Assembly (NCBI GenBank): GCA_030615605.1
Contig: JAUWYY010000005.1
Coordinates: 43,682 to 107,681 of the forward strand
Length of the DNA: 64,000 bases
Direction of reading: 5' to 3'
Source: a bacterium
GTDB lineage: Bacteria > Armatimonadota > Zipacnadia > Zipacnadales > Zipacnadaceae
Of this stretch, positions 15,443-48,067 are shown piece after piece; positions within the stretch are counted from its first letter, which is position 1, and each line of letters opens with the position of its first letter. Position numbers and translations under genes: made by a program. Below the pieces are notes generated by a model. The model ran no database searches and had not been told where the DNA came from. It was given only the letters and a program-made list of their open reading frames with translations.

Positions 15443-15489
15443 GATCAAACGCTGCCCGGACGGGGACCGGGATCCGGAGGTGTTCAGTC

Positions 15490-24908: not shown

Positions 24909-25453
24909 CACTCGTAAGCAGCGGCCTGTGGGGGTAAGTCATTACAAATCGGCGAAGATACGTCGCAGCGCCAGGAACGCCTCCAGGAACTCCTGTTTGG
25001 ATTTTGGATACATGACCCGGCGTACATCCTTCCGGCAGTGGAGCAGAACCGAGATTGGCGAATATAGTGCATCTGCTTAGTTGATTGCCCTCGTGGCTGT
25101 GCCACGTGCACACGCGCGGGCGCAGAGAGGCAGGAGGTGCTGGACGTTGGCAAGAAGATTAACTTACATCTAGTGCCCAAAGCAAAGGGCTGATTGAGTT
25201 GCTAATGCTTCGCGGACCAGATTAGGTCGTGGGCTTATATTCCCTTGGTGCATGGGGTGGAGGGTAGGAGGTCACATGACCAGTGTATAAGTGGCATATA
25301 AGCGTTGCCGCAGAGACAGTCAATATGCGATTATTCAGAAATATAGCTGGGCAAAGGTCATATAAGCCCGAGTGGGTACATAACTCAGGAAACAACACTG
25401 GTAAAGCGCGCAACCTGGCGGCTCAAATGCTGCCCACCGTGGCCCGAAGGGAT

Positions 25454-25481
25454 ATAACTCGGCTTATAGATTCACTTTCCG
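25454..25481 (+). repeat. 28-bp motif ATAACTCGGCTTATAGATTCACTTTCCG (copy 1), ~135 nt upstream of integrase
   Basis: Second copy at 36328-36355 differs at one position (T to C). Both precede paralogous integrase genes in the same orientation. Confidence 0.7.
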
Positions 25482-25616
25482 GCATTTTGGGCTATTTCGC
25501 CAGTATTATGGCCTCACTGTGAGGGGACATAATCCAGACTTATAGCCCGGTTAGCTCTTCCTCGCTGCAACCTCGTATCGAGCCAAAACACTAACCGAAA
25601 GGATGTGTGATGGCGC

Positions 25617-26510
25617 ATGCGTATCGAGGAAGCGGCACAGTTGTTCCTGACGTATCTTCAGCACGAACGAGGTTGCAGCGCCGCCACGTCGACAGCCTAC
25701 GGCTCCGACGTGGTGGCGCTGCTTCGGTATCTGGCGGAGGAGGGCATCGAGCCGTGCGTCGAGTGTGTTACGGCGCAGGTGCTACGGCGGTATGTAAGCT
25801 GGCTGTCGATGTTGGGGTACAGCGCGGGGACTATCGCGCGGCGGGTGTACGCGATTTCGTCGCTCTACAAGTATCTGGTCAACTACGGGTACGCGGAAAG
25901 GAACCCTTGCGGCCAGGTGGTGCTGCCGAAGAAGGTGAAGCGGATGCCGGCGGTGCTGACTCTGGAGGAGGCGCGGCGGGTGCTGCGGGCGGCTGATGAC
26001 CACCGGTGTCCGTGGATGGGCTTCCGCAATCGGGCGATGGTGGCCGTGCTTCTGTTCTGCGGTCTGCGTCGGCAGGAGCTGGCCGACCTGAAGCTCTCCG
26101 ATGTGGATGTGCGCTCGCGGTGGTTGAAGGTGCGGCGGGGGAAGGGTGGCAAAGGTCGGTCAATCCCCTTGGCGCCGGAGGTAGCGGAAGCGATCAATGA
26201 CTGGCTGGAGTTCAGGCCGCAGGTAGATCATGAGTACCTGCTGACGGGTCTGGGTGGTAGGCGGTTGGAGAAGAATGGGCTGGTGGGAGTGTTCCGCAGG
26301 GTAGCGAAGCGGGCAGGGGTGTACCGTAAGGGGGTAAGCCTGCACACACTGCGGCATACCTTCGCTTCGCTGCTGCTACAGGAGGGGTGCGATCTGGTGT
26401 CTATACAGGAACTGCTGGGGCACGCCGACCTCTCCACGACGGCGATCTACTTGCACCTGGACGCAGCGCACCTGCAGGGGGCGATGGAACGCCATCCGTT
26501 AAGTGGATAA
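25617..26510 (+). CDS. Tyrosine recombinase / phage-type integrase (XerC/D-like)
   Basis: N-terminal SAM-like core-binding domain. C-terminal HTLRHTFASLLLQEGCDLVSIQELLGHADLSTTAIYLHL (R...HxxR...Y catalytic signature). Confidence 0.9.
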   Translation: MRIEEAAQLFLTYLQHERGCSAATSTAYGSDVVALLRYLAEEGIEPCVECVTAQVLRRYVSWLSMLGYSAGTIARRVYAISSLYKYLVNYGYAERNPCGQVVLPKKVKRMPAVLTLEEARRVLRAADDHRCPWMGFRNRAMVAVLLFCGLRRQELADLKLSDVDVRSRWLKVRRGKGGKGRSIPLAPEVAEAINDWLEFRPQVDHEYLLTGLGGRRLEKNGLVGVFRRVAKRAGVYRKGVSLHTLRHTFASLLLQEGCDLVSIQELLGHADLSTTAIYLHLDAAHLQGAMERHPLSG

Positions 26511-26683
26511 TGGGTCAATGAGAGTAGTGGTGCTGATGGGAATAGGTGAGCTGAAAGAGAAGATGGGCAGAGCCGGTGCGTGGTGTCAATGCGCCTTGGG
26601 CTACGATGCAGGAGACTACCCCATGTGTGAAGCCAATGTAACCGATTATTGTTGCGGTCTGCTGGGCGTATACGATTGCAGTT

Positions 26684-27082
26684 TCAGAGACTCTGGTGCA
26701 GGATATGGGAGAAACGGTCGAACATATGGGGGAGATAGAAAACGAGGAACAGGATAGAAAAAGTTAGGAGCAGCCAGATCATACAACCGCAAATGGATAT
26801 AAGAATGCCCTTTAGCGCCAACCTACTATTTTCGCCGGTACGGTGGGATTTAACACCGGTCCATATCGCAAATGGTGCGACAAGCGGGCAGAGCAGAGAT
26901 ATGAAAGCCAGCACTACGGACCAGATGGCCCAGGTTTCCCGTTGTACAGGTGGAGCAGAGTAGGGAGGCTGGGCGTGGGTGGGTTGCTGTCCAGCAATGA
27001 CAGATGGGCCGTGTGAGATGCCAGGCTCATTGGTAATGTAGACTTCAGCGCCACAGTGCGGACAATTGTGTGACTCGACCAT
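26684..27082 (-). CDS. Small membrane protein with N-terminal zinc-ribbon (CPHCG) and DUF4190-like TM region
   Basis: CPHCGAEV zinc-ribbon start. Pro/Gln-rich linker. Two TM helices. Confidence 0.45.
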   Translation of the reverse strand: MVESHNCPHCGAEVYITNEPGISHGPSVIAGQQPTHAQPPYSAPPVQRETWAIWSVVLAFISLLCPLVAPFAIWTGVKSHRTGENSRLALKGILISICGCMIWLLLTFSILFLVFYLPHMFDRFSHILHQSL

Positions 27083-27286
27083 GAACCTTCACCATTCGAT
27101 CAACAGAGATAGGTATTGTGCATGTTAACAGCTACGTCCTGGTTACTTCTCTTAAGTATAGCCATTTGGCTATGCGCGTGAAACACGGGCAGCGGAAATG
27201 ATTGATGCAGGGCAAGAATATCAGATGATAAATGCAGTAGCAAAAGACACGAGGAATCTCAGTCCGCGGTTCCTTCCAGATGGGTT

Positions 27287-28219
27287 CTAGGTTGTGGCGG
27301 CAGGTGGGCGCAAGCAAAAGTCAACCGCGACTGCGGCTCGTTGTATCTCATCGAGATCATAGTTGAGGTACAGGATGGTGGTTTGCAGCTGCTCGTGACC
27401 GAGAAGTATTTGGACCTGGCGGATGTTGAGGCCGCTCTCCAGCCAGCGTTTGGCGGCGAAGCGGCGCAGGCTGTGGAGGGTATAGTGAGAATCGGTGAGG
27501 CAGGCGGCTTCTGTCCAGTGTCGGAACCAGCGGTTAAGTGTGCTGAGACACAATGATCCTCCCTGGCGGCCTCGAAACAGTGGGCCGGTGTGGGGGAAGT
27601 GTTGCTCGGCATGGAGAGCGTAGATGGCCGGGAGAAGGTCGTCGAAGATCAGTACCTCGCGTTGCTTGTCACCCTTGCCATGGATACGCAGGCGGCGGTT
27701 GGGAAGATCTGCGTCATTCCAGGTGAGGCCAAGAAGCTCAGCGCGGCGCAGGCCGCTAGTGGCAAGGGTGAGCAGAACAGCTCGTTCGGTGAGGTTGCGC
27801 GTCGCGTCAAGCATGGTCTGGACCTCCTGGGGGGACGGGCAGGTAGCGATGCGGCGGCGCTTCTTGGGGCGGTGTACGAGGTCAATGGGATTGCTGGAGG
27901 CATGGCCGAAGCGAATGGCCCACTTGAAGAGACCTGATAGTGAGTTGAGGGCGCGGCGCACCGTGGCGTCGGAGAGATGGTGCACGGTGGCGATCCAGTT
28001 CTCGACCGTCGGGGTGTCGATGGTGGCGAGTGGACGCTGGGGGTCGCTGTCGAGAAAGCGGGCGAAGCGCGCGAGGTCCAGACGATAGGCCGCGATGGTG
28101 CGGGGTGAGCGCCGCGCGACCTTCTGCAGGTAGTCAAGATACAGGCTGATCGCCTCAGTCATCCTCACGGTGATCACCTCGCTCGTGGGCTTGGGCAGGC
28201 CAAGTCCCAAGAGTATCAC
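27287..28219 (-). CDS. Tyrosine recombinase / integrase
   Basis: HSLRRFAAKRWLESGLNIRQVQILLGHEQLQTTILYLNY catalytic C-terminus. Last gene of a three-gene minus-strand operon. Confidence 0.9.
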   Translation of the reverse strand: MILLGLGLPKPTSEVITVRMTEAISLYLDYLQKVARRSPRTIAAYRLDLARFARFLDSDPQRPLATIDTPTVENWIATVHHLSDATVRRALNSLSGLFKWAIRFGHASSNPIDLVHRPKKRRRIATCPSPQEVQTMLDATRNLTERAVLLTLATSGLRRAELLGLTWNDADLPNRRLRIHGKGDKQREVLIFDDLLPAIYALHAEQHFPHTGPLFRGRQGGSLCLSTLNRWFRHWTEAACLTDSHYTLHSLRRFAAKRWLESGLNIRQVQILLGHEQLQTTILYLNYDLDEIQRAAVAVDFCLRPPAATT

Positions 28220-29300
28220 CGGGACTTGGGTACAGTTTTGAGTGGTTTTGTTGTGATTGGGTTTCGTTGTGCTTAGCGATTAGGTCGACAACGGATTCGG
28301 CTCTCTTGTGTGGAATGAGTCTCCCTGGGGGTGTGAAACGCGGGTCGGGAGGCCAGGCTATTTCGAGCGGAGGGAGGTCTTCTATGTCGGCGAGGGCGCG
28401 GGCGAGGCCTGCCTGGGCGGCTTCGCGGAAGTAGCGGTTGACGGTATGACGTGAGAGATCAGCCTCGTGAGCGATGGTCTGTTTGTCGCGTTCCTGGTTG
28501 GCGCACAGGGCACCATAGATTTTCATGACTTTGGCGGGTTTGTAGTAGAGGCCGAGTTGCCGGAGGGAGCTATCCCTGGTGGCAAAGCGGCAATTGAAGA
28601 TGCCAAGGTGTTGCATGTCACGGCGTAGGATGTCGAGCACTGGCTCGCGAGCAAGATCGCCTAGTCTGACGGGTTTTGGAGCGCGAAGAGCTGCGGCTGT
28701 GGTGTCGGTTTTGTTGTAGTTACTCTCGTGGCGGAGGGTTCCAGGAGGGGGAGAGACTTCGCGAGGGAGGCGGTGGTGTTTGGCCTCCTGGAACTTGTCG
28801 TAATACTTGGTCTTGGAGGAGACGGAGCGGTATTCGACGCCAGTACCCATGAATGGTACGGTCTGGCGGCGGGGGTATTCGAGTGTGTTGAGGGCGCGCA
28901 GGTAGTGGGGAAGTGCGTCGCCCACGAAGTAATTGTAGCAAGCGTCGATGCGCATGAGCTGTCCGTCCGCGGCAGTGGGGATGTATGGGAGGGCCGGGCA
29001 GTCGTGGAAGAGGGCGTCGAGCGCGGCAATGGCCGTGGGGATGTCAGGTATCATCGGCCAGTTGTATCCGTAGAGAACTCTGGGCAAGGACAGCTCAATC
29101 CAGAAAAGCGGGTTGCCTTGCCAATCTATGGGGCGGTAGGTGGCTTTGAGGGGGATGCGGTATATTTTGTCTGGATTGTAGACGAAGAAGCTCTCGATGT
29201 CGCCGGATGCGAGGTAGGTAGTGCCCTTCTGTTCCCATCCAGCACGGAAGTGGTCGTCAGTGGGCTGCACGTCGAACTTGAGTCGGACTGAGTCTATCAT
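28155..29300 (-). CDS. Hypothetical protein (element-associated; possible replication-initiation-like function, unverified)
   Basis: 381-aa ORF with coding-like composition. Its 3' end overlaps the integrase start by 65 nt. No motif I can assign with confidence. Confidence 0.5.
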   Translation of the reverse strand: MIDSVRLKFDVQPTDDHFRAGWEQKGTTYLASGDIESFFVYNPDKIYRIPLKATYRPIDWQGNPLFWIELSLPRVLYGYNWPMIPDIPTAIAALDALFHDCPALPYIPTAADGQLMRIDACYNYFVGDALPHYLRALNTLEYPRRQTVPFMGTGVEYRSVSSKTKYYDKFQEAKHHRLPREVSPPPGTLRHESNYNKTDTTAAALRAPKPVRLGDLAREPVLDILRRDMQHLGIFNCRFATRDSSLRQLGLYYKPAKVMKIYGALCANQERDKQTIAHEADLSRHTVNRYFREAAQAGLARALADIEDLPPLEIAWPPDPRFTPPGRLIPHKRAESVVDLIAKHNETQSQQNHSKLYPSPGDTLGTWPAQAHERGDHREDD

Positions 29301-29399
29301 CTTCTTCTCCTTGTTATGGGGCGGAGCACAGGGTGCTCTTTGGTGTTGCGGTTGAGCATATCAGGAGAAGAAGTGAGCGGGGTGTAACTTAAGGAGCGG

Positions 29400-30260
29400 C
29401 TATGTTTCCGGGTTGTTTTCGGGGGTGTTTTCGGCGGGTATGGTGCGGCGGAGCCAGTCTCGGTAGTTCTGGAGGTTTTTCCGAATGGTGTCGGCGTCCG
29501 TGCGAAGAGCAGCCTCGTACTCGGGCGAGACGGTGTCGAAGTCTGGGCGAGGGCGAAATCCTAGTTCATAGGAGATGTCGGCGAGGTGCATGTGAATGTT
29601 GTGTCTGGCGTGGTCTGAGAGCCGGAGAATGCGGTCGCAGGCGTCCAGCCAGCCGGTCTCGGTGATCAGGTCGGGGCCGCGGCGGCGCTGGGGTAAGTCA
29701 AACGTCTCTTTGCAGGTATCGCGGAACTCTGTGAGAAGCGTGTCGAGGTCGGTGGCGGCGGAAGCAACGGCTATTACCATCAGCTCGCCGTCGATATCGG
29801 AGACGCAAACGCCTCCAAAGATCATGGGGATTGGGGCGGGGACCTCAAGGAAGCCGGTGACGATGTGACGCGAGAGGGCCCGGCCGACTGCGATGGGGAA
29901 GTTGTCAAAGTCTAGGGCGGGGCGAAGAGCCTCGATGATGGAGGGGATAGTGTCCTGGGGGCCCGTGGGCGGCGGCGGGGATGGCTGTGAGAGGAAATCG
30001 GGAAGGCCAGGCGAGTCCTGGTCGAGGTCTTCGGTCAAGGTACGAAAAGCGAAGTCACAGGCTTCGGCCTCGAAGTTCTCGGGCGGGTGGTGTTCCAGGT
30101 TATAGCGAAGACCATCGAGGGTCTCGGCTGGGACGATATCCTCCCGGTCGCGAATGGATTCGACGAAGCGTTGGTATTTCTCGCTGGATATGAGGCGCCA
30201 GGTGATGGCGTCGGCGAGTTTGTCGGGCGCGCCTATGAGTTCGGTGTCGAAGTCGCTCAT
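29400..30260 (-). CDS. Hypothetical protein (acidic, Pro-rich linker), first gene of integrase operon
   Basis: 286-aa ORF co-directional with and upstream of 28155-29300. No recognisable domain. Confidence 0.45.
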   Translation of the reverse strand: MSDFDTELIGAPDKLADAITWRLISSEKYQRFVESIRDREDIVPAETLDGLRYNLEHHPPENFEAEACDFAFRTLTEDLDQDSPGLPDFLSQPSPPPPTGPQDTIPSIIEALRPALDFDNFPIAVGRALSRHIVTGFLEVPAPIPMIFGGVCVSDIDGELMVIAVASAATDLDTLLTEFRDTCKETFDLPQRRRGPDLITETGWLDACDRILRLSDHARHNIHMHLADISYELGFRPRPDFDTVSPEYEAALRTDADTIRKNLQNYRDWLRRTIPAENTPENNPET

Positions 30261-30663
30261 GATAGGTAAGAGAAAAGGTCCTCGATGTAGTGGGGCAGCA
30301 GTCGCCGATATATTCTTCGCGGCGGGTAGGATTCCTTTGGTGTGGTTGGGAGAAGGTTAATGGTGAAGGTGTCGAGGGGGTTATTCATGGCCGATGTTCT
30401 GCACTTTCTGCACCTCAGGTGAGTGCTGGTGTGATCGAATTTGCTGTGACAAGCTCTTGGACAGGTTAAGTGGAGAGGAGGTTCTCAGCAGGCGGCGAAA
30501 GTGGAGAACAGCGGCGGGCCGGGACAATTGACAGGAACCGGGGGACCAGCGTACACTGGGGGTAAGTAGCGGTGACGTTGAACGCTGCCATAGTGGCACC
30601 CGCCGAAGGCAGAGGTCCGACGGCGAAGGAATAAACGTAGTCGACGGAACGGGAGCCCGGCCT

Positions 30664-31806
30664 ATGTCATACGAGTCCGTTGATGCTCTGCAAAAGTTGC
30701 TATCCGAAGAAGTGTTTCACTATGCCAGCGACAAGAAAAAGGCCGCCGGTAGGGCACTAGGGACCATTGTTGAAATTATTACCTACTATATCTTGCGCAG
30801 TTGGGGGCTTCGAGATTGTGTAGCCATAGAGACGCGACTTCCCGAGTTCGCAAATCCTGAGATCAGTCATAATGTTGAATTTTCTCTCCACCCAATCATT
30901 GCGACCCGCTCCGTCGAGTTTGATGCAGTACCTCCGATCACTGCGAAGAAGATTTGCAGGCAAACGTGTATCACTGCCGATGATCAGCTGAGCAGTAGCA
31001 AGAGTACTCAGCTGCTGAGCACAGATGGACTGCTAAGGAATTCCTGCTCTGTTCTAGATGTACCGATAGGTTCGTACGTTGCGCATTTGGATTCATTCTT
31101 GGATGGGAAATGCTGTATTACGCTTTGTCTTCACGATGCGCACCCTTACGCAGTTGTTGAGTGCAAGCGCGTGGGGGTGGAAGAGGGTATGAAGAAGGGA
31201 CCTCAGACTATCGAGAAGGCGAAGCAGGGCGCATATGTGGCAAGTAGGGTGTCGAGCGTTCAGAAAATCAGATTGAGAGACGGCACTCTGGGCGGTGTCG
31301 TTGAGAAGGTGAATGGAACACTTCTCTACGAAAAGAGATACGACGACCTTCGAAAAAGGATCATGGACTCAGATGTGTCGGAACTGCTGAGGGGGTTCAT
31401 TCTTACAGTAGGTGTTGTGAGCAATCACGGAAATTGGTTTACTTCTGGCGATCAAAATAAGGAGCTCAAAGTCCTATCCCAGTCGTATGATTGGTTGATC
31501 TTCTTGACAGATACAGGACTGGTGCAGTTCATCAATGACCTATTGATGGACACGGTGGCAGAGCTAGAGTCAGCCCGAGATGCTTTCCAGCGAAGCTATT
31601 CGGAGGGTAAAACGAAGAACAGGTTTACAAAGGTCAGAATCGACTGTGAAGCTGATGAGGGAATGCAGGCATATTTTGCCCGGAACTCAGAAAAGGTTGA
31701 GACATGGTTCAATGTGATCGCGCCAGAATCACAAACACTTGAAGTACTGCGAACAGAACTTGATGCATTGAGTAGAAAGGATTGGAGGCGGATTCATTCG
31801 TTATGA
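30664..31806 (+). CDS. Putative type II restriction endonuclease (PD-(D/E)xK candidate), cognate of the downstream MTase
   Basis: GC clearly lower than flanks. Candidate catalytic motif LHDAHPYAVVECK (D...E-x-K). 25-nt overlap with the downstream adenine MTase gene. Confidence 0.4.
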   Translation: MSYESVDALQKLLSEEVFHYASDKKKAAGRALGTIVEIITYYILRSWGLRDCVAIETRLPEFANPEISHNVEFSLHPIIATRSVEFDAVPPITAKKICRQTCITADDQLSSSKSTQLLSTDGLLRNSCSVLDVPIGSYVAHLDSFLDGKCCITLCLHDAHPYAVVECKRVGVEEGMKKGPQTIEKAKQGAYVASRVSSVQKIRLRDGTLGGVVEKVNGTLLYEKRYDDLRKRIMDSDVSELLRGFILTVGVVSNHGNWFTSGDQNKELKVLSQSYDWLIFLTDTGLVQFINDLLMDTVAELESARDAFQRSYSEGKTKNRFTKVRIDCEADEGMQAYFARNSEKVETWFNVIAPESQTLEVLRTELDALSRKDWRRIHSL

Positions 31807-32390
31807 CAGCTGGGCGAAGCGCGAACTCATTGAGCCAAGATTGGGGCACTCCTAAGAAATATGTGGATGCCGTGAAGAAAGTTTTCGGGGGAGTGATTGA
31901 CTTAGACCCGTGCTCTAATGAGCATTCGGTCGTTGGAGCACAAACAGAGTATTGCCTCCCAGAAAAGGACGGACTTTGCGAATCGTGGTGCTTTGGGCGG
32001 ATATACGTTAATCCTCCTTATGGAGCGGACCGTGAAAGAGGGACAAGGATCAGTAACTGGTTGTCTAAGTGTGCGGAGGCCTACAGAGCACATGGGTCAG
32101 AAGTTCTGGCGCTAGTCCCAGTGGCCGCCAATACTACTCACTGGAAGAAATATGTGTGGGGGTGCGCAACAGCGGTCGCCTTTCTCTATGACACGAGATT
32201 GAAATTCTTGATAGGTGGGGTAGAGAACGGGAAGGGAGCACCGATGGCTTGTGCAATGGTTTACTGGGGAGGTAATTACGATAGATTCTTCGATGTCTTC
32301 ACTATGTTTGGGGCGGTCGCTGACTTGCGACCACTGAAGGGAAAGAGGATTGGTGGACGTGACTTGGCTCTTCCGGCGCTGGCGCAATAA
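31782..32390 (+). CDS. DNA N6-adenine methyltransferase, phage-type Dam (PF05869-like)
   Basis: DWGTPKKYVDAVKKVFGGVIDLDPCS...GRIYVNPPYG. The DxWxTP...LDPcs...NPPY family signature. Confidence 0.8.
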   Translation: MEADSFVMTAGRSANSLSQDWGTPKKYVDAVKKVFGGVIDLDPCSNEHSVVGAQTEYCLPEKDGLCESWCFGRIYVNPPYGADRERGTRISNWLSKCAEAYRAHGSEVLALVPVAANTTHWKKYVWGCATAVAFLYDTRLKFLIGGVENGKGAPMACAMVYWGGNYDRFFDVFTMFGAVADLRPLKGKRIGGRDLALPALAQ

Positions 32391-32719
32391 CGCACGAAGT
32401 GCAACATCCAGTGTAGTGTGGTTATTGGGGAGGACTTCCAGTGGCGAGCAAGGATGACTACGAGCAGGTGGGTGGTTGGGTAGGGGCGGGGGTGAGGGGT
32501 AGAAGCGAGGCCTCGGGGGTAGTGCGGCAGCAGTGGGTGGTGTATTCGTTGCGGGGCGTAGGATTCCGTTGGCGTGCCGGGGAGAAGATTAGTGGTAGTC
32601 GGTGGGGAAATGTCGTGGCCTAGTCTATGAGGGGGAGGCTCGTCGGGATGATGCAAGAGGTAAAGCGCTGGTTAGGGTGTCCGTTGCGCCGATGAGGGGG
32701 AATATAGATTGGGTATGGG

Positions 32720-32935
32720 TTAGGCAATCCTCGCATATGGGTAACCGGCCTTCTTGATGTGCTGGTCGAGGTAAGTGCCTTTAGAGGAGGCGCTTAGAAG
32801 ACCTAAGTGGTGGGCTTCGGGGACGCCAATATATTGGTAGACAGCTCCCGTTAGGAACATGATCTCCAGAGTCTGGGTTTGAGGATCGTAGCCGACTTCA
32901 GCTAGGTTAGAGGAAGAGACAGGCATGCGGTCCAT
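32720..32935 (-). CDS. KTSC domain protein
   Basis: VSSSNLAEVGYDPQTQTLEIMFLTGAVYQYIGVPEAHHLGLLSASSKGTYLDQHIK matches the KTSC pattern. Confidence 0.6.
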   Translation of the reverse strand: MDRMPVSSSNLAEVGYDPQTQTLEIMFLTGAVYQYIGVPEAHHLGLLSASSKGTYLDQHIKKAGYPYARIA

Positions 32936-32947
32936 TTTCTGTTCTCC

Positions 32948-34711
32948 TTAGGATGTGGACTGGGTACGCCAGGCTGTGACAGCTTGGTCATAAGGGGTTG
33001 ATGCCTCCGGGTTGGTGGCCCACGCCGCGATGACATCAGGATCAGTGCTCTGGGGGCGTGGTTCAACGAGCGGGAAGCGGACTCTTGTTGGAATCTGAAT
33101 GGCTTCGCCGCTGACGACGGCCTCTCCGGTGCGGAGGGCCGGGAGGAGGTCGACGAGGGCGGTCAGACCCTCGGGAAGAGTGGATCGAATTCTGGCTCGG
33201 TCATCGGAGTTGGATAGACGTAGGGCGAAGAATGTGCCGCACTGCGAGAGAAGGGTTTCGTCGATCTCTGCGGGGCGTTGAGTGACCAGTATTGCGCCGA
33301 CGCCATACTTGCGACCCTCCTTTAGGACGCGCTGAACTGCGCGCCTTGCATAGCCTGTGACTGACTGGACATCTGATCGTGGGAGATACGAGTGGGCCTC
33401 CTCGTAGACTAGGACGATGGGTCGCTGGCGGCCGATGCCCGGCAGATTTCGGCCCCAGAACATGCCCTCAAAGAGTATGCGGGTTAGTGTGCTCACTACG
33501 AGGTCGATAACCTCAAAGGGGACGCCAGCGAGGTCGAAGACGGTGATAGGGTGAGTATGTCCTATCCAGTCTTGGAGAAGGTGATGGAGGTCTTTGTTGT
33601 GACCATCGTACTGCGTGGGGTTGAGAAGGAAGTCGAAGCGACGGTCTTTCAGGCGGCCAAGTATCTTGCTGACATATGATGACATGGGAGTCTGGATGGC
33701 TGGCTTGTACGGGGCTGCAGAGCCTGCTCCTGGGGGAGTAAACGTGGCCGAAATCAGAGTGGTGGCATCTCCCTCGCTGACTAAGGCTTCTTGCGAGCGT
33801 GGCATGTCGAGGTACGTGACGCGCTCTGCTCGGTCTAAAGCGTACCAAAGCTCGCGGATATCAAAGGGGATAGGTGAATCAACAGTGATCTCGTCTGGGC
33901 TTACGGCACCGGCTGATAGGGAGTCGGCGCGGGCGCGCTTGGCCTGGAATATGTGCTCCCGAAGGATGACGTCCTGTAGCGATTCTGAAGTAGTCTTCCG
34001 TTCAACGAGGAACCAGGAGAGTTCGTCAAAGGATAGTGCCCAGTAGGGGATGAGCAAAGGGTGTTGAGGGTCACGGATGCGATAGACGCGACTGTAGCCT
34101 TGGAAAGCACTCGCATACTCGCCATGCGGGTCGATGACGAGGAAGCGGGCGTTGGGGTAGGTAGCGGGGTTGACGGCTGTCAGAAGGTTGGCGACGGCGT
34201 TGGACTTTCCAGCGCCGGTTGCGCCCACGATACATAGATGTCGTGTCACAATCTTGTTCAGGTCAACTCTCGCTGGTAGGGATTGCGAGGCAGCATGGGT
34301 GCCTACGATGATGTGGGATGGTCCCTGCGGGGGATAGATGGTTGCTGTGTCTTCTTCGGTGACGACGTGCACCTCGTCATCAATGGTGGGAAAGATGCTG
34401 ATTCCTCTTTGGAAGGGGTCGCCGGAGTAGGATTCGCCAACTAGCTGGACCTCTATCCAGCGTTGGCCGGTTGGGGGAAGAGGCGGCGCGCTTTCGAGCA
34501 CGTCAAGTTCGGAGGCGCCGACCATGGATACAATGCCATAGAGGTTGAGGTAGCCTATGGGGATCCGAACGAAGGAGCCGATTTGGCCGAGGCGGTGGAG
34601 TCTTCCGCCAATGATGGGGCTGGCTGAGGGAATCTGCGGTGACAGTTCGATGAAGATTCTCGCTCCGACGACACGACGAACGATCCCTAGGAAGGTTGGG
34701 TCAGTCTTCAT
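32948..34711 (-). CDS. herA: HerA-like (DUF87) ATPase of SIR2-HerA antiphage system
   Basis: Walker A HLCIVGATGAGKSNAVANLL. Walker B IVLVYEEAHSYLP. 4-nt overlap (ATGA) with the upstream SIR2 gene. Confidence 0.8.
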   Translation of the reverse strand: MKTDPTFLGIVRRVVGARIFIELSPQIPSASPIIGGRLHRLGQIGSFVRIPIGYLNLYGIVSMVGASELDVLESAPPLPPTGQRWIEVQLVGESYSGDPFQRGISIFPTIDDEVHVVTEEDTATIYPPQGPSHIIVGTHAASQSLPARVDLNKIVTRHLCIVGATGAGKSNAVANLLTAVNPATYPNARFLVIDPHGEYASAFQGYSRVYRIRDPQHPLLIPYWALSFDELSWFLVERKTTSESLQDVILREHIFQAKRARADSLSAGAVSPDEITVDSPIPFDIRELWYALDRAERVTYLDMPRSQEALVSEGDATTLISATFTPPGAGSAAPYKPAIQTPMSSYVSKILGRLKDRRFDFLLNPTQYDGHNKDLHHLLQDWIGHTHPITVFDLAGVPFEVIDLVVSTLTRILFEGMFWGRNLPGIGRQRPIVLVYEEAHSYLPRSDVQSVTGYARRAVQRVLKEGRKYGVGAILVTQRPAEIDETLLSQCGTFFALRLSNSDDRARIRSTLPEGLTALVDLLPALRTGEAVVSGEAIQIPTRVRFPLVEPRPQSTDPDVIAAWATNPEASTPYDQAVTAWRTQSTS

Positions 34712-36075
34712 TTGGGTGCCTCGTCATCTCCTGGTGGTGGGGGAGTCGGGGGCATTGGTGGCTCTGGTGGAGACGAGTGGACAGTGACTGACGAGCCGAG
34801 AAAAGAGGCCAGGTACTGCGCGAACTCCGAGAAGTGGCCAAGGGTGAAGACACCGGATGGGGGGCCTTCGGCAGCGGGGGGAGCGTTCAACGGGGGTTCC
34901 TGGGGGGAGTGCCAATCTCCTTTTACGGTGCCGACGTAAGCGTTGATTGGATCATACACGGTGAGGTTCCGATGCTGTGAGGCGTGGCGGGCGAGGGTGG
35001 GGGTAGCTGGGTCGTGGAGCAGGACCGTAACTGCAAGGCTGGAGTTCGCGCGTAGGCATTGGAGTATGATCTCGTTGATGTGCTGATCAGCAAAGCTATA
35101 TCCAGCGACGATGAGAAGGACGTCTGGGATCAAGAGCAAGGTGCGGAGACGGTCGTGGTATGCCACGAATGGCAGTTTGCGTGAGTCGGAGTACTTCTCG
35201 TGGGACGGAAATATGATGTATTCGTCGGCTTCAGTGACAGTGTCAAGGGGAGCTCGGGCAATGCGATGGGAGTCGTCGAGCTGGGTCTTGACGCGTCGCC
35301 AGCCGATTGAGCCATGGAGCTTCCACAGACGAACCCAGGTGCGGGGCACCGCAGATATATCTGTGCCGAGTCTGGCGTCAGCTTCCACGGTGGAGGGGGC
35401 GAAGAATGGCTCGACGGAGCCAACGAAACCGTCGAAGAAGTAGGTACCAACGTCTTCCATGGCCATTTCGAGCAGAAGGTCGTAATTGGTGGTAAAGACC
35501 TCGATAGGGTAGTCTCTGGGGATGGTACGTAGCCATTGTGCGAAGATTCGCTGGGGGAGGGAATCTTTGGGAGGGGGCTCACTGAGGATCTTAGCGATTG
35601 ACCTGCATATCTGGCGGTCGAGGGGGCAAGCATGCGGACAGGCCAGGGCGGTGTCTGTGGCAGACATTCCAGGGTCGCCATGAGCGGCGCAGATTCGCCC
35701 GCTATCGAGAGAATCGGGAGTCATTGGCGAGACGATCTCGCGGCAAAGACGGATGCGGGTCAGTGCGGCCTCTATGTTGGCATCCGGTCCAAGGCGTTGG
35801 AGCAGATCGGAATAGATGGCAAGCCAGGGAGGGGAAAGCTCCTGTGGAAGCCTTTGGGTGAGTTGGGCCATTCCTGGCATTCCGACGGCCATGGAGGTTC
35901 CGGCGCCGAGCAGGAAGGCGATTCGCCGCTTGTCGGAGGCAAGCTGTTCTCTGAGTTCGGACCTCTCGCGCGCAGGGTCATAGATGAGCCGGTTGGTCAA
36001 TGGAGGCCTCCCCGTCGGATGAGGTACGGGACGTTGGGCTGGGGTGTAGGCCGAATGGATGTGACGCAGTGTCAA
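34708..36075 (-). CDS. SIR2-family (SIR2_2/DHS-like NAD-binding) protein of SIR2-HerA antiphage system
   Basis: IAFLLGAGTSMAVGMPGMAQL (GAGxS...G.P motif) and VFTTNYDLLLE (TTNYD motif of SIR2_2). Confidence 0.75.
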   Translation of the reverse strand: MTLRHIHSAYTPAQRPVPHPTGRPPLTNRLIYDPARERSELREQLASDKRRIAFLLGAGTSMAVGMPGMAQLTQRLPQELSPPWLAIYSDLLQRLGPDANIEAALTRIRLCREIVSPMTPDSLDSGRICAAHGDPGMSATDTALACPHACPLDRQICRSIAKILSEPPPKDSLPQRIFAQWLRTIPRDYPIEVFTTNYDLLLEMAMEDVGTYFFDGFVGSVEPFFAPSTVEADARLGTDISAVPRTWVRLWKLHGSIGWRRVKTQLDDSHRIARAPLDTVTEADEYIIFPSHEKYSDSRKLPFVAYHDRLRTLLLIPDVLLIVAGYSFADQHINEIILQCLRANSSLAVTVLLHDPATPTLARHASQHRNLTVYDPINAYVGTVKGDWHSPQEPPLNAPPAAEGPPSGVFTLGHFSEFAQYLASFLGSSVTVHSSPPEPPMPPTPPPPGDDEAPK

Positions 36076-36327
36076 CCAGCATTTGATTTAGTATACAGAT
36101 TCGCGGTCACTAGTGCAAGTTCTCCAATGTGGAGAACAGGGGACGAGGAATGGCGGCGTAACGAGTTTTTGGGTTAGAGGGGCAAGGAGGTGGCAGGCTC
36201 GGTTTGGTCGAACTATGCACCAGCTCGGTGTGGTGGTGGCGGGGAAGGGCAATAGTGGAACCTTTGGCCGATATTATGTATTCACTGGGAAGCCTGAAAA
36301 GGCCGAAGAAGGGGCATTTCTGAATAC

Positions 36328-36355
36328 ATAACTCGGCTTATAGACTCACTTTCCG
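36328..36355 (+). repeat. 28-bp motif ATAACTCGGCTTATAGACTCACTTTCCG (copy 2), ~170 nt upstream of integrase
   Basis: See copy 1 at 25454-25481. Confidence 0.7.
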
Positions 36356-36523
36356 TGGACAAATCGGGGCCGGATGTTCACAAGTAGCCAGAAAAAGCGG
36401 GCCATAACCTCTCTTATCGTGCCTACTTGTGGCAGGCTTGTGAATTCCGGCAGACAAATGTAACTCCTGAGCGCAGTAAGGTTCGCTTCGCGCTTCTGGT
36501 GCACAGAAAGGATGTGCACATAA

Positions 36524-37468
36524 GTGCAAAGCATTATAGACACACTTGCTCAGGAATTCCTGCTCTACCTGCAGGCCGAGAGGGGCTGCAGCCCCCTTAC
36601 CGCCACGTCTTACCGCTCCGATCTGACACAATTGTTCACACATTTGCAAGAAAGCTACGGGGTGGATGAGCCTGCGGAAATCACTGTGGAAATGGTCCGG
36701 TCGTGGATCGTTGCCATGTACGAACGCGGGCTGTGCAGCAACAGTGTGGCCCGTAGGGTCTGTTCGCTGAAGAGCTTCTGGAAGTATCTGTGCGAACGGG
36801 ATCTGGCTGCACCAGAGGTCGTAGCGAGAGTCAGCACGCCGCGACGGGAGAAGACGCTTCCGACTTATCTCAGCAAAGAGTCGTTGCAGAAGCTGCTAGA
36901 TGCAACTCTGCAACAACGCACTGAGTATTGCGCTTTCCGTGACTATGCGATAATGGCCACGTTCATCTACGCGGGCCTACGGCGGGGCGAGCTGCTCAAT
37001 CTTAAAATGGGCGATGTTGATCTAGGCGCTCGGACACTGCGTGTTGTGCGCGGAAAGGGGAACAAGACGCGTATTATTCCGCTGGTCGAGGAGCTGGAGG
37101 AGGCGATTGCTGATTGGCTAGAGTACCGCCGCACCAAGGGGCACGATTACCTGTTCACCACCAACCGGGGCAACCGCATCTACCCAAGCCGCCTGCAGAT
37201 CATCTGGAAGAACATCCTTAACCGGAGTGGCATCAACCGGTCCGGCGTGAGCATGCATACGTTGCGGCATTCTTTTGCGACGCTCCTGCTGCAAACTGGT
37301 AACGCTGATCTGGTCTCCATCCAGCATCTGCTTGGCCACAGCCGACTGGACACGACGGCCATCTATCTGCATGTCGATGCCCAGCAACTGCGTGAGGCAA
37401 TCACGGCGCATCCGCTGTCTAGCGCAAGCGGAGGCGCACAGCCAAGTCGCTCAGTACAGAGCTTATGA
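36524..37468 (+). CDS. Tyrosine recombinase / integrase (paralog of 25617-26510)
   Basis: LYLQAERGCS, RVVRGKGNKTRIIPL, HTLRHSFATLLLQTGNADLVSIQHLLGHSRLDTTAIYLHV. Collinear similarity to the 25617 integrase. Confidence 0.9.
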   Translation: MQSIIDTLAQEFLLYLQAERGCSPLTATSYRSDLTQLFTHLQESYGVDEPAEITVEMVRSWIVAMYERGLCSNSVARRVCSLKSFWKYLCERDLAAPEVVARVSTPRREKTLPTYLSKESLQKLLDATLQQRTEYCAFRDYAIMATFIYAGLRRGELLNLKMGDVDLGARTLRVVRGKGNKTRIIPLVEELEEAIADWLEYRRTKGHDYLFTTNRGNRIYPSRLQIIWKNILNRSGINRSGVSMHTLRHSFATLLLQTGNADLVSIQHLLGHSRLDTTAIYLHVDAQQLREAITAHPLSSASGGAQPSRSVQSL

Positions 37469-37573
37469 CCTCCGGGGGAAGAATAGAAGATAGTCGCGGC
37501 GTGCCTGGTGAGGGAAGGACGCTGCAGCGGCTGCATCCTCCGCGGACGCCAGCATCCTGGGTCCCGCCAACAG

Positions 37574-38149
37574 TCACTCCATCTTCCTAATGCAAGCGGT
37601 ACACCTTTCCTCGCCATCAATGAACCATCGCTGGCAGGGCACGTCGGTCGCCGTGTCGCCAAAGATGAGTAAGAGCCCGTAGCGGTATCCGAACTGTCCA
37701 CAGCGGCTGGTGAAGCGCTTGAGTTTGTCCTCATCTATTGACATGCTATCGGGGTGGCACCGTTTCTTGGCCTCGATCACCAGCAGGTTGTGGCTGGTGC
37801 ACCTGCGGTGGACGATGATATCAGGATAAACCGTCTTGGCCTCTACGTCATCTGGCTCCAGACATTTGTACTTGGCTTGCGAGCATTCGTATTCTCGGCG
37901 CAAGCGCTTAATCTGATCGCCGTCCCTATTGTACTCGCAGTCTACATCCCAGTCGGGGAAGACCTTCTGCAGATGCTCGCCAAGTTTGTGGGTGATAGAC
38001 CGCTCGTTCGCGTCGACGTGGATCAGGTCTTGGTCATTATTGAGGAACCGCCCGAGTGCTTCGTCAACGCGTTCCGCCACCTCTTCACCCGATGGATACT
38101 GTGGGTCTGCTTGCTCCCGATTTGCCATGCGCGTCGCCTCCGGTGCCAC
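37574..38149 (-). CDS. Small PD-(D/E)xK nuclease-fold protein (putative)
   Basis: VYPDIIVHRRCTSHNLLVIEAKK (PD-x13-E-A-K) preceded by an acidic helix. Confidence 0.45.
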   Translation of the reverse strand: MAPEATRMANREQADPQYPSGEEVAERVDEALGRFLNNDQDLIHVDANERSITHKLGEHLQKVFPDWDVDCEYNRDGDQIKRLRREYECSQAKYKCLEPDDVEAKTVYPDIIVHRRCTSHNLLVIEAKKRCHPDSMSIDEDKLKRFTSRCGQFGYRYGLLLIFGDTATDVPCQRWFIDGEERCTACIRKME

Positions 38150-38159
38150 AAGAGTGCCT

Positions 38160-38262
38160 ACTTCGTCTTTGCCGCGTCTCCCATCCGGTACTTGATGTCG
38201 TAGTTGATGATGAAGTCCAGCTCCTCAATGGCGTGGTCGGTGGCGCTTATCTGCCGCTACGT
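38160..38262 (-). repeat. Degenerate copy (DR-A) of the 3' end of the type IIG R-M gene
   Basis: Directly after the TAG stop of the 467-aa ORF, in the same frame, it encodes RQISATDHAIEELD..., cf. QIAATDQAIDKL at the C-terminus of the 40921-44022 gene. About 36 nt of nucleotide similarity (TCAATGGCNTGGTCGGTGGCG). Confidence 0.5.
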
Positions 38263-39660
38263 GCGTGTCAATTGAGTGTAGACGTGCGCAAGTAAGCCAA
38301 CAAGCCGTGTGAGAAGGTACCGCTGCAGCTTCCGATAGTCGCCAGGCCCATGAGGCATGGCCTTGCCAATGCACTGGCTAAAGAACTGAGTGAGCCTAAC
38401 CATCTTCTCCTCAGCACCACTATCATGCTCCACATCGTGGCGATAGAAGTTGTCACGTAGCAGCCTGACTTCATCGTTGACAAAGTCTTGATGTTGAGCA
38501 TCCAGCAAGCTCCATAGAAGACCTTCCTTCTTGCCCCCATCTTCCCACAGCAGGAAATATAAATAATCTACTACCTCGCCAAGAAGCTTCTCTGTCGCCG
38601 CTATAATGCCAGGGAAAGCTGCGATTATACTCATGAACTTCGAGCTGGCACCGAATATGGGTTTCTCCCCGGCAAATCTGGAAGCTCTGTCACAGTCGAG
38701 GATCAATGCACGCACTTGTAGCCCCAATGCCAACTCTGTTTCGTACGGGAGATCTGCCAAGAGTTCTTCTGCATCGATCTGAATACCACGTTCGGCGATT
38801 CGATCGTGTATCTCGGTCCGCTGGACTTGCAGGATGTTATAAGTAGGCAAGGCTCCCACAAAAGGTCCGGAAATGCCCGTTTCTGGATCGTACAGAGTCA
38901 GTGCTTCAAGGTTGCTCGCGCATACTATGCTCGTTGCAGAAGAACTAGCGACTATTCCTGCGCTCGCCCGAACAGTCGCGATCTCATCACCTTCGGCTTC
39001 TTCCTCTTCTATGCGGTAGCGGTTAGCAGTCTGCTCGAACATTCTTGGGGGCTGCAGCAGAACCTCGTGAAGTAAGTCACTCCGCGGAATGTCAAACTGG
39101 GCCAATGAGGCCCTAACTGCAGGGCCCATTGCGAGAGCAGCCTGCGCTGCTTCGGCAATCGCTAGGCTCTGCCCTAGCGCTGCGGCCCGTGTCTTATCCA
39201 TTCGCGCCGACCAAGACAGCAGCGGCGCCATGGACGCCGACACCGCTGCAGATTGCGTTATGGCCGTCTGCATGATCGAGGCCGATTGTTCTTCCAGTCG
39301 CTGGAGGTGCTGAAGATATGATCCTGACACGACGGACGCCAATGATATGGACAACATTACAGATTGGCCTATGGTCACCTCCATCATCCGGTTAGACTGT
39401 TCTTCCATATGCTGAAGGTGCACACCCCATGATTGTGAGAACAACGAGGTTCGATCAATGGCAGCCACAATGGATGATAGGTGGTCCTGCCGCGCTGCCC
39501 ACGCCGCCGTGCGCGCCTCCATTAACGAGTATATATGTGACGGCGAGTAGCCACCCAGCACCCGACTCAGCCCTTCGAAAGATGCCATCCGGGCTTGGAG
39601 TCCTTCGATCGCCTCAAGCTCGTCCTGGTCATCATCTGTCTCGTTGCTCATATCTATCAC
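38257..39660 (-). CDS. Hypothetical protein with internal Gln/Ser-rich helical repeats
   Basis: 467-aa ORF. Tandem approximate repeats HLQHMEEQSNRMMEVTIGQSVMLSISLASVVSGS / YLQHLQRLEEQSASIMQTAITQSAAVSASMAPLLS. No assignable domain. Confidence 0.55.
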   Translation of the reverse strand: MIDMSNETDDDQDELEAIEGLQARMASFEGLSRVLGGYSPSHIYSLMEARTAAWAARQDHLSSIVAAIDRTSLFSQSWGVHLQHMEEQSNRMMEVTIGQSVMLSISLASVVSGSYLQHLQRLEEQSASIMQTAITQSAAVSASMAPLLSWSARMDKTRAAALGQSLAIAEAAQAALAMGPAVRASLAQFDIPRSDLLHEVLLQPPRMFEQTANRYRIEEEEAEGDEIATVRASAGIVASSSATSIVCASNLEALTLYDPETGISGPFVGALPTYNILQVQRTEIHDRIAERGIQIDAEELLADLPYETELALGLQVRALILDCDRASRFAGEKPIFGASSKFMSIIAAFPGIIAATEKLLGEVVDYLYFLLWEDGGKKEGLLWSLLDAQHQDFVNDEVRLLRDNFYRHDVEHDSGAEEKMVRLTQFFSQCIGKAMPHGPGDYRKLQRYLLTRLVGLLAHVYTQLTRT

Positions 39661-39747
39661 ACCGCCTTAGGAACAATGCTTTCACCCTCTTATGATATGA
39701 TTTTGATAAACATCCGCCTGCGTCGCTTCCCATGTAGGTAGGTGACT

Positions 39748-39843
39748 TCATGTTTCCGCTGCTTGGACCATCGCGATCTCCTCGTCGGTCAGCTCGTACA
39801 GCTCATGGATTAGCTCATCAATGGCCTGGTCGGTGGCGGTTTA
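39748..39843 (-). repeat. Partial copy (DR-B, ~88% nt identity over ~70 nt) of the 3' end of the type IIG R-M gene
   Basis: Encodes TATDQAIDELIHELYELTDEEIAMVQAAET* immediately after a TAA, cf. ATDQAIDKLVYELYELSDEEIAIVEGQT*. Overlaps the last 8 codons of the FGE-domain gene in another frame. Confidence 0.6.
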
Positions 39844-40885
39844 CAGACTCAGGCTTGGGCGTGTAGACGCAGCGAAACCCGACGGAGTTGTTGCTATATT
39901 TGGGTGGGGGATGGTGTTCGCGGTTTGTCGTGCGGCACTCATCTTCTCCGTAGAAACAGTTGCCGCCCCGGACGACGCGGCCCTCGCCCTGGAGACGTCC
40001 CCGAGGGTCTTGCACGGTGGCTTCGCTGTCGGGGTAGTCGCCAAACCAGTCTTCGCACCATTCCATGAGGTTTCCGGCCATGCCCAAGGCTCCGCGCCAG
40101 CTTGCACTGTCTGGGAAGGAACCGACAGGACTTGTATACGTAACCTCCGTTTCGTCCCAAGAGTCACCCTCCTCTACGTACTGCTTCCTTTCCCAGTGCC
40201 ATGCTCGGCCTTGATTCTCGCTGCAGCAACACCGAGTCGCGTCCCAACAGTCGCCCCACGGGTATATTCTTCTCTCCGGCCCACGAGCGGCCCACTCCCA
40301 TTCCGCCTCTGTGGGCAGACGCAGGCCATAGTACTCGGCGTAGTCGTGGGCCGCCTGCCAGGTCGCTCCGACAACGGGGTACTTGTCGCGGTCTTCCAGC
40401 GTTCGGTAGTGCCCGCTTTCTAGCACAATATCGGACGGTTCGCACATCACAACGGGGTCAATTCTGGCTCGGTTGTGACCGCTCTCAATGAGCTTGTTCA
40501 GATACTGTGCGTACTGCGTGTTAGTAACGAGACACTTCATAAGCCAGAAGCCATTGGAGATGCATACCTTTTGAGTCGGTCCACCCCCGGGCTTGTCGTC
40601 TCCCATTAGGAACTCGCCATCTGGCACCCAGACCATGGACGCAAGCGTCGGGCCAGCAATTACCTGACCCAGCTCCCCTGGGGTGCGCCAGAGGTGGCCC
40701 GACGGCCCATTCGCTGCGCCAAGGCCTCGCCGCAAAGCCTGGCCCGCTCTGCGTCTCGCTCGGCGCGCATTCCACCATCTGCTGAGCCGTGTCTCGACTG
40801 GCCCCGACACCCGACGCTTGAAATCGCTCCACAGCACTACCAATAGACTGTTGTCCTTTATTTCCACCTGATCCCCCTCCTTCAA
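39818..40885 (-). CDS. Formylglycine-generating enzyme (FGE/SUMF1)-sulfatase domain protein
   Basis: GATWQAAHDYAEYYGLRLPTEAEWEWAARG...GNLMEWCEDW...RVVRGGNCF. Matches the PF03781 pattern. Confidence 0.75.
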   Translation of the reverse strand: MKEGDQVEIKDNSLLVVLWSDFKRRVSGPVETRLSRWWNARRARRRAGQALRRGLGAANGPSGHLWRTPGELGQVIAGPTLASMVWVPDGEFLMGDDKPGGGPTQKVCISNGFWLMKCLVTNTQYAQYLNKLIESGHNRARIDPVVMCEPSDIVLESGHYRTLEDRDKYPVVGATWQAAHDYAEYYGLRLPTEAEWEWAARGPERRIYPWGDCWDATRCCCSENQGRAWHWERKQYVEEGDSWDETEVTYTSPVGSFPDSASWRGALGMAGNLMEWCEDWFGDYPDSEATVQDPRGRLQGEGRVVRGGNCFYGEDECRTTNREHHPPPKYSNNSVGFRCVYTPKPESVNRHRPGH

Positions 40886-40920
40886 CTAAGCATAAGAGTG
40901 TCTGGCTCCTGGCTGACCTC

Positions 40921-44022: not shown

Positions 44023-44336
44023 GTGCAGACGGAATCCTTGCTGTTATGTGTCCGTAACGTGTGGGGAAGACTTCGCGGGCCGAAAGGTTGGGCCGTCTCC
44101 CAAGAGGGCTCGGGCACGTGATGACGAAAAGGATGGGCATAGAGAGGCGGTGCGGATGCCAACCGACGAACCGTGCGAGGAGGATCTTCCCAACGCCCGG
44201 AGAGCCGCGAACTCGGCTTGGCACGACGTGTGCGAGCAACTGGGGCGCTTTCCGCTGCCCCGGCCTATCGCTACTCATCCTTGGCAGCGGGCATCTCTCC
44301 GTCTTTAGCCCATTTGTAAACCGCCAAGGGCCTTAC

Positions 44337-45185: not shown

Positions 45186-45199
45186 CGAACGATGGTCAG

Positions 45200-47845: not shown

Positions 47846-47875
47846 GTGACATCTCCCGTGCTGCCTTTGTCACTG

Positions 47876-48067
47876 TCAACTCAGCCCAGTCGCACTGGAT
47901 TCGTCGCAAAGCCCCATGGCAATACTGCGCAGAAGCGTTGTATTGCCATTCCCGTTGTCCCCGACCAGCACCGTCCACATCGTGGTCTCCCCTTCTTCAG
48001 ATTCAAGATTCAGGGTGACATCATCAAAACACCGGACGTTTTCCAGGACGACCTTCGTTATGTACAT
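47876..48067 (-). pseudogene. Truncated N-terminus of an ABC/OLD-type (AAA_15/21, PtuA/GajA-like) ATPase
   Basis: MYITKVVLENVRCFDDVTLNLE...WTVLVGDNGNGNTTLLRSIAMGL is the typical N-terminal strand plus Walker A region of this ATPase family. The ORF stops after 63 aa. Confidence 0.45.

Follow-up and report, generated by a model that had tools for sequence, protein, structure and literature searches.

Genomic islands and prophages reportedly occupy the 3′ ends of tRNA and tmRNA genes, as set out by Williams in 2002. Elements of the pSAM2 type, the actinomycete integrative and conjugative elements (AICEs), combine a tyrosine integrase and a rolling-circle replication (RCR) initiator within ~11 kb and integrate in the 3′ end of a stable RNA gene. 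Islands and prophages at tRNA and tmRNA genes, integrated at the 3′ end, are described for Islander (PMC4383910), the attB of phage phiEf11 lies in ffs, the 4.5S RNA gene, a novel RNA-gene target reported in 2025 (PMC12540744), and the CTXphi-type integrative mobile elements exploiting Xer (IMEX) of Vibrio, which carry the Rep_trans initiator RstA, integrate at dif by means of the host XerCD (PMC5357621). Here we describe a 10,874-bp element in a 64-kb stretch of DNA from a member of the Armatimonadota (contig JAUWYY010000005.1, positions 43,682 to 107,681; hereafter the window, whose own numbering is used throughout). The element lies between two copies of a 28-bp motif that we identify as the 3′ end of rnpB, the gene for RNase P RNA. 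In the searchable literature we found no report of rnpB as an attB; reports beyond that literature or in island databases are possible.

The 28-mer ATAACTCGGCTTATAGA(T/C)TCACTTTCCG occurs at 25454-25481 and 36328-36355, on the + strand in both cases and with one mismatch between the copies. These are the sole matches in the window at three or fewer mismatches (none is expected in shuffled sequence), the 16-nt core of the motif likewise recovered just those two positions, and the only candidate for a third site or distal attR within the window, at 48575, carried six mismatches and was judged a chance match. The first copy ends 135 nt before the gene for IntA (25617-26510, + strand) and the second 168 nt before that for IntC (36524-37468, + strand), and these two Xer-like tyrosine recombinases are collinear and 44% identical over their full length. 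The initial annotation had described a same-orientation motif 135-170 nt upstream of two similar recombinase genes, and our measurements agree with it in each respect. It had offered two readings of the pair, either as att direct repeats delimiting one element of ~10.9 kb or as the int promoter or arm site of two related elements inserted in tandem.

The comparison with related sequence that could reveal an empty site was provided by a contig from a JGI metagenome (L001; handles of this kind denote related contigs or loci), which encodes an IntC homologue 92% identical to that of the window. Positions 4-76 of L001 correspond to window positions 25409-25481 (93% identity) and positions 49-1135 to 36328-37414 (94%), with both matches overlapping in one single copy of the motif. 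The 45 nt on the left of this copy correspond to the flank of copy 1 rather than copy 2, and the sequence on its right corresponds to the flank of copy 2. Because L001 joins the left flank to copy 2 via one motif, we conclude that the 10,874 bp between the copies are an insertion flanked by att direct repeats and that L001 represents the uninterrupted site (with 48 nt of left flank), its breakpoints falling inside the motif; the first of the two readings is thereby borne out. The T at 25471 is private to the left copy (attL), with C present both in the right copy (attR) and in L001, and because this difference and the flanks side in this way, the crossover is placed within the 17 identical bp at 25454-25470. 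Strand composition delimited the same interval. A fit of two change points to the GC skew, made independently of the motif, placed them at 25709 and 36314, with a skew of 0.25 inside the interval, 0.07 to its left and -0.08 to its right. The + strand is thus G-rich over 25700-36320, a domain whose right edge falls within ~15 nt of attR, and the + strand skew at third codon positions ranged from +0.18 to +0.57 in the genes inside, on either strand, compared with -0.16 to +0.12 in the flanking genes.

The identity of the motif emerged from Rfam. A local match to RF00010 at 36252-36356 ends at copy 2 (20.1 bits, E 0.005), and a weak one at 25403-25482, covering the model ends only, ends at copy 1 (10.5 bits, E 0.46). 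In 13 related loci, full-length RF00010 matches of 202-305 bits stop 1 nt past the motif; these are L007, L008 and L013, which are contigs of Armatimonadota-type metagenome-assembled genomes (MAGs), the metagenome contigs L133, L138, L149 and L156, and L142, L152, L163, L181, L189 and L204. In 10 of the 13, the intact rnpB is followed ~130-240 nt downstream by an adjacent Xer-like gene resembling those for IntC or IntA, and the integrase beside the intact rnpB of L181 is 73% identical to IntC. The 28-mer thus corresponds to the last 28 nt of a class-A rnpB, comprising the universally conserved 3′ strand of P4 (ACAGAAyyCGGCUUA) and the 3′ strands of P2 and P1. The repeat is exactly 28 bp long because its right edge is the end of rnpB and its left edge is the crossover, and the direct repeats that flank the element correspond to the 3′ portion of the target RNA gene. 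A regenerated intact target gene at the end of the island or array is present in, for example, L007, L008, L013, L181 and L163 and is absent in the window, where the sequence left of attL holds an internally deleted, RNase P RNA-like remnant of ~80 nt and arm-like debris and no intact gene.

The association of this site with integrase genes extends well beyond the window. Among loci selected by the similarity of their protein to IntC (42-92% identity), the site was found 150-240 nt upstream of the int gene in all nine that had kept upstream sequence; the nearest homologues come from MAGs of Armatimonadota, Zipacnadia and WS1. A scan of metagenomes with TCGGCTTATAGAYNCRCTYTC returned 75 loci, of which 43 were informative in having at least 1.2 kb of downstream sequence, and 26 of these carried a Xer-like gene on the same strand 127-225 nt downstream of the site (19 closest to IntC and seven to IntA). 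The other 17 had no such gene, and the three examined (L133, L138 and L156) are plain rnpB genes, flanked in L138 and L156 by housekeeping genes that we read from their translations as nadB and ilvC. A separate scan of viral contigs with a 15-mer core gave 41 loci, none with the extended motif, and these were treated as chance matches; in one locus, the only such one, a distant recombinase lies ~100 nt from the core on the opposite strand (L121). The homology of the window to L002-L005 starts exactly at the motif and stops at the 3′ end of the IntC gene. Beyond int, on its right, each locus has a different flank, unrelated to the others and with many defence genes. Because the site-plus-int module carries different cargo in each related locus, IntC, which lies outside the insertion, is assigned to a resident neighbour, very probably a related island whose integrase it is, the locus being a tandem array of sister elements. 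The tandem arrangement proposed in the initial annotation therefore very probably stands alongside the reading as att repeats; the part that would make the motif only an int promoter does not, the motif being a recombination site.

IntA has orthologues of its own (53-72% identity) behind the same site in L146, L162, L180 and L193. The order site, IntA (+), IntB (-) recurs in L146, L162 and L193, and in L146 it continues with a homologue (-) of the replication gene described below; this distant relative also displays the same G-rich skew over ~5 kb of its IntA-IntB-Rep backbone. IntB (27287-28219, - strand; Pfam 7e-26), a Xer-like tyrosine recombinase whose gene is convergent with that of IntA, has orthologues of 58-65% identity that adjoin IntA-like genes in L146, L162 and L193, and we take it to be a backbone gene of the element family. 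We also note that many contigs of the family start at the site (L006, exactly) or within ~100 nt of it (L001, L005, L132, L145, L157, L171, L185 and L186), which suggests that assemblies break there because populations differ in what lies left of the site. In L004, two site copies (9647 and 9792), 145 nt apart, precede an IntC-like gene, and fragments of IntA-like and IntB-like genes farther downstream at 13900-15700, beside an rve-family insertion sequence, are remains of a related element.

All three recombinases of the array have a Phage_integrase domain combined with SAM_1 (Pfam Phage_integrase 1.3e-37 for IntA and 2.7e-38 for IntC), IntB and IntC are 29% identical, and an alignment of 32 sequences, IntA and IntC among them, shows no variation in the columns of the catalytic R, K, HxxR, H and Y. 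XerC, XerD and XerA are the best-scoring NCBIfam profiles for these integrases (250.1/230.8/199.2 bits for IntC, 230.6/211.7/181.1 for IntA and 165/140/143 for IntB, in that order), yet every equivalog cut-off (335, 329.6 and 220) was missed. A tyrosine integrase gene thus stands at one end of the element, that for IntA, 135 nt inside attL; IntA is the presumed integrase of the element and, possibly with IntB, would be the catalyst of integration.

The Xer-like character of the recombinases bears on our initial working idea, namely that IntC serves a single-recombinase Xer system, comparable with XerS/difSL or XerA/dif, of which the motif is the chromosomal dif, and that the 10.9-kb segment is an IMEX-like element at dif. 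The best scores of IntA and IntC against the XerC, XerD and XerA models speak for this idea, as do the core shape ATAA-N6-TTAT with its inverted arms, a match at 18 of 28 positions to the Pyrococcus abyssi dif oligonucleotide ATTGGATATAATCGGCCTTATATCTAAA (PMC2958812), and the convergence of genes (+ strand up to 25 kb, - strand between 37.5 and 55.5 kb) on the locus, where the sign of the skew also switches. We dropped it when Rfam revealed the 3′ end of rnpB, since the same sequence ends full-length rnpB genes in 13 loci. Further, neither skew nor gene orientation switches at the site in L008 and L013. Tests for a terminus gave inconsistent results across related loci, and the local convergence in the window is not decisive. 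The missed Xer cut-offs, the presence of several site copies or remnants per locus (two copies plus remnants in the window) and the fact that, unlike IMEX, the element brings its own recombinases, IntA and IntB, all argue in the same direction, and we hold a dif site to be highly improbable.

Least probable of all, in our estimation, is that the motif is a mere promoter or operator common to two paralogous integrase genes and that the interval is ordinary chromosome. The fixed position of the motif upstream of each int gene would fit such a role, and the leader does hold further conserved blocks and arm-like words, one of them overlapping the start of the IntC gene, as autoregulation might have it. 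A promoter would not, however, place the breakpoints of the empty site in L001 inside the motif, nor make the homology of L002-L005 to the window begin exactly there; the skew domain coincides with the interval, and the motif also terminates rnpB genes with no integrase in their vicinity. Usual assembler k-mers are longer than 17-28 bp, which weighs on the remaining alternative, an assembly artefact in which a free circular plasmid with an rnpB-like attP was stitched into a chromosome contig at a common repeat. The window comes from a metagenome-type contig, a single one of 184 kb at NCBI to which its proteins are assigned; the genes of the element are replicon-like as a set, its strand composition is foreign, and contigs of the family often break at the site, all of which would suit an artefact. 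But the exact common stretch is only 17 bp (28 bp with the mismatch), both junctions would need to be wrong in a consistent orientation, and the arms of attL and attR are exactly the reciprocal products expected of attP x attB. We therefore consider an artefact very unlikely, if the least unlikely of these alternatives, and retain integration at an rnpB 3′ end as the preferred reading.

This reading gives the sites a defined anatomy. Over 62 distinct sites, the consensus consists of the left arm GnGyACAkAA, the overlap YTCGGC and the right arm TTATAGACnCAC, the right half being fixed by the search pattern and equally conserved in the protein-selected set; the left arms fall into two classes, an rnpB type (ACAGAAY) and an element type (CATAAY). 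In the window, attL (25454-25481, + strand) has the chromosome-side left arm AAGGGATATAA, the overlap CTCGGC and the element-side right arm TTATAGATTCAC, with a left flank that matches L001, and attR (36328-36355, + strand), which the IntC module also has as its att site, has the element-side left arm CTGAATACATAA (36320-36331). Rejoining the element ends predicts an attP of the form GAATACATAA-CTCGGC-TTATAGATTC, which would be symmetric at 8 of 10 arm positions. The ATAA-N6-TTAT pattern has four matches in the window against 0.22 expected, and the arm word TTATRKAYTCAC has seven at one or no mismatch against 0.84 expected, an 8-fold excess, all of them at the two att regions. Three belong to the cores themselves, at the attL right arm (25464, +), the attR left arm (36320, -) and the attR right arm (36338, +). 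The other four lie in a half-site remnant left of attL (25372, -), in the IntA leader (25506, +; TTATGGCCTCAC at 25506-25517), in the right end of the element, 64 nt before the core right arm (36274, +; TTATGTATTCAC at 36274-36285), and within the first codons of the IntC gene (36534, +). A site equivalent to that at 36274-36285 also precedes the core in L146, L162 and L004, and the IntA leader holds a further accessory arm-like site, read from the sequence as CATAA-N7-TTATAGCCC (25528-25548, + strand). The arm words look like candidate accessory binding sites of a higher-order att complex. A MAFFT alignment of the sequences upstream of the two int genes put the motif out of register and was useful just for revealing such secondary sites.

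The cluster of CATATAAGC (twice) and CTTATAG repeats that the initial annotation had placed near the first motif copy is real. The window contains three matches to CATATAAGC against 0.22 expected, two of them at 25295 and 25359, and seven to GCTTATAK against two expected, five of the seven at the two att regions; the CATATAAGC cluster belongs among the arm-like remnants. The segment 25230-25400 holds debris of earlier att sites, comprising the half-site GTGGGTACATAA-CTCAGG at 25372-25389, in which TACATAACTC is identical to the left junction of attR, the CATATAAGC copies at 25295 and 25359, and GCTTATAT at 25233. In the IntC leader, a hairpin at 36379-36431 (+ strand), noted in L001 and L002 as well, with the 9-bp stem CACAAGTAG / CTACTTGTG encloses a core-like ATAA-N6-TTAT at 36404-36417; the stem is altered on both sides in L002 (CACAAGTGAG / CTCACTTGTG), and the hairpin could be either a regulatory structure or an accessory site. 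An arm-like word at 36534-36545, TTATAGACACAC, overlaps codons 4-7 of IntC and is kept as TTATGGACACAC in L001 and L002, and binding of the integrase to the start of its own gene at this position is possible.

The element also carries a gene for a putative replication initiator. Rep (p381; 28155-29300, - strand) is assigned to the Rep_trans / phage G2P-like rolling-circle initiators from its homologues and predicted fold, the predicted structure of its catalytic domain agreeing with Rep_trans / phage G2P initiators. Six of ten p381 homologues matched PF05144 weakly (best E 1.8e-5), Y122, Y157 and Y167 are invariant tyrosines and candidates for the catalytic residue, and a tblastn search with Rep found nothing in plasmid and phage collections. 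Paired with the rep gene is that for p286 (29400-30260, - strand), a protein of 286 amino acids with no family match, of which a homologue (27% identical) is encoded directly upstream of the Rep homologue in L129. A 10-kb contig from the ENA sample shared with L004 (L127) encodes two Rep homologues 44% identical to p381, together with a NACHT protein and a DDE transposase; the Rep family thus occurs outside the IntA-IntB context too.

We propose that a Xer-like integrase family uses the rnpB 3′ end as its att core, the family module consisting of the rnpB 3′ end, a leader of ~130-240 nt with extra arm-like sites, the int gene and then variable cargo. At the locus studied here, the 10,874-bp element would have recombined, around the overlap CTCGGC, into an rnpB-3′-type site preceding IntC, producing attL at 25454 and attR at 36328; the target in the window is the att fragment carried by the IntC island. 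IntC and its own downstream defence genes would form the sister island, making the locus a tandem array. The element presumably excises as a circle, and, from gene content and skew, this circle would replicate by a rolling-circle, single-strand mechanism. The G-richness of the + strand, whichever strand the genes occupy, would follow from such single-strand replication. Where a module abuts an intact rnpB, the 3′ end borne by the element would restore the RNA. The element would accordingly be an integrative, plasmid-like replicon that spends part of its time as an asymmetrically replicated circle exposed as a single strand, and the strand-skewed island is probably a rolling-circle replicon, a point that the initial annotation had missed.

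Several observations weigh against this account. No match to RF00010 at the gathering score was found anywhere in the 64-kb window, which means that the array does not sit at a working target gene in the window and that the functional rnpB must be located outside it. The left flank of L001 is limited to 48 nt beyond the motif, and a search over 27 kb revealed no distal attR for the IntC island. As to replication, p381 has no Pfam match at threshold, its putative assignment as a Rep_trans/G2P-like initiator draws on homologues and a predicted fold, and the skew could stem from a cause other than rolling-circle replication. On balance we have good confidence in the account as a whole, that is, an att site at the rnpB 3′ end, an IntA-bearing element inserted at the site before IntC, and a tandem array. 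Its wider form we offer tentatively. A widespread Xer-like integrase family, present in Armatimonadota-type MAGs and on many metagenome contigs, may use the universally conserved P4/3′-terminal segment of rnpB, and detached 28-nt copies carried by resident islands may serve as portable landing pads where new rolling-circle, two-recombinase defence plasmids stack, at a locus from which the essential gene has gone.

The remaining genes of the interval fit the contents given in the initial annotation, a restriction-modification (R-M) pair, SIR2-HerA and a second integrase (IntB) beside further genes. Between IntA and IntB lies the gene for a small membrane protein of 132 amino acids (26684-27082, - strand) with a weak DUF4190 match below the cut-off. 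The R-M cassette encodes a putative restriction endonuclease of 380 amino acids (30664-31806, + strand; a weak REase_II match, 0.0013 over 21 residues) and a Dam-like N6-adenine methyltransferase (31782-32390, + strand; Pfam Dam 1.1e-14, PHROG 111 6.4e-28). This cassette (30664-32390) has a GC content of 0.48-0.51 compared with 0.58-0.63 in the rest of the element and is bracketed by 78-nt direct repeats of family D1 (30287-30364 and 32519-32596, both + strand; the left copy 78% identical to the right), suggesting that it was acquired separately. HerA (32948-34711, - strand; PADLOC HerA 6.1e-156, Pfam DUF87) and SIR2 (34708-36075, - strand; PADLOC SIR2 9.3e-103, Pfam SIR2_2) are encoded by adjacent genes that overlap by 4 nt and match the profiles of the SIR2-HerA anti-phage system.

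To the right of IntC, 37574-57921 forms a dense zone of defence and mobile genes. It contains PD-Lambda-3_A (37574-38149), an MmeI/Eco57I-type type IIG R-M protein (40921-44022), an HD-CE/HATPase protein (46538-47845), a truncated tyrosine recombinase (49646-50359), a ParB-like protein (50556-51524), an AAA_25 protein (54341-55501) and a full tyrosine recombinase (56926-57921), which brings the tyrosine recombinases of the window to five. The array adjoins an exopolysaccharide (EPS)/exosortase cluster whose synteny is shared by L002 and L183. L002 also matches window positions 48187-48247 over 61 nt; we considered this a possible point at which synteny resumes and rejected it, as it looked like an unrelated repeat. 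The large open reading frames of the window all lie on the + strand in 1-25000 and all on the - strand in 37500-55500, a terminus-like arrangement that is not repeated at the site in L008 and L013.

If this interpretation is true, rnpB would join tRNA, tmRNA and ffs genes as a stable-RNA target. The rule by which conserved structured RNA genes receive integrations at their 3′ ends would then cover RNase P RNA as well, and the integrases of the family would offer a predictable insertion site in uncultivated phyla. Since the crossover adjoins a sequence among the most conserved in bacteria, engineering of poorly studied phyla could draw on the family for predictable integration sites. The locus further shows how defence systems (SIR2-HerA, R-M, PD-Lambda-3 and type IIG R-M) pile up in tandem at one att site, and it provides a clear case in which strand composition alone delimits an integrated element, probably one that was once a rolling-circle replicon.

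Set against the known systems, the recombinases share their domain architecture, catalytic residues and best-scoring profile families with the dimer resolvases XerC/XerD, XerA, XerS and XerH but differ from them in scoring below every equivalog cut-off, in having their genes at island ends, next to an RNA-gene fragment, and in occurring as several paralogues within 64 kb. The CTXphi-type IMEX resemble the element in small size, in an initiator of the rolling-circle superfamily, in the Xer-type core ATAA-N6-TTAT and in forming tandem arrays with sister elements; unlike them, it encodes two recombinases of its own, targets the rnpB 3′ end and not dif, lacks filamentous-phage morphogenesis genes and has genes on both strands. 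With the AICEs of the pSAM2 type it has in common a size of ~11 kb, a tyrosine integrase, an RCR initiator and a stable-RNA 3′ end as target, whereas it differs in having no recognisable transfer gene (HerA pairs with SIR2 as a defence system), another Rep family, another host phylum and two recombinases. The closest likeness in mechanism is to the islands at tRNA genes (tDNA-type islands), in which, as here, the tyrosine integrase gene adjoins the att site, the direct repeat is the 3′ part of a conserved structured RNA gene, ending where the gene ends, an intact gene stands at one end (here in related loci of the family), and tandem arrays hold displaced gene fragments between islands. Unlike in those islands, the target is rnpB, with the crossover beside the P4 strand, the integrases are Xer-like proteins of ~300 amino acids with a SAM_1 N-terminal domain, and the array in the window is detached from any intact target gene. 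We conclude that the element is, mechanistically, a tDNA-type island with a different RNA target.

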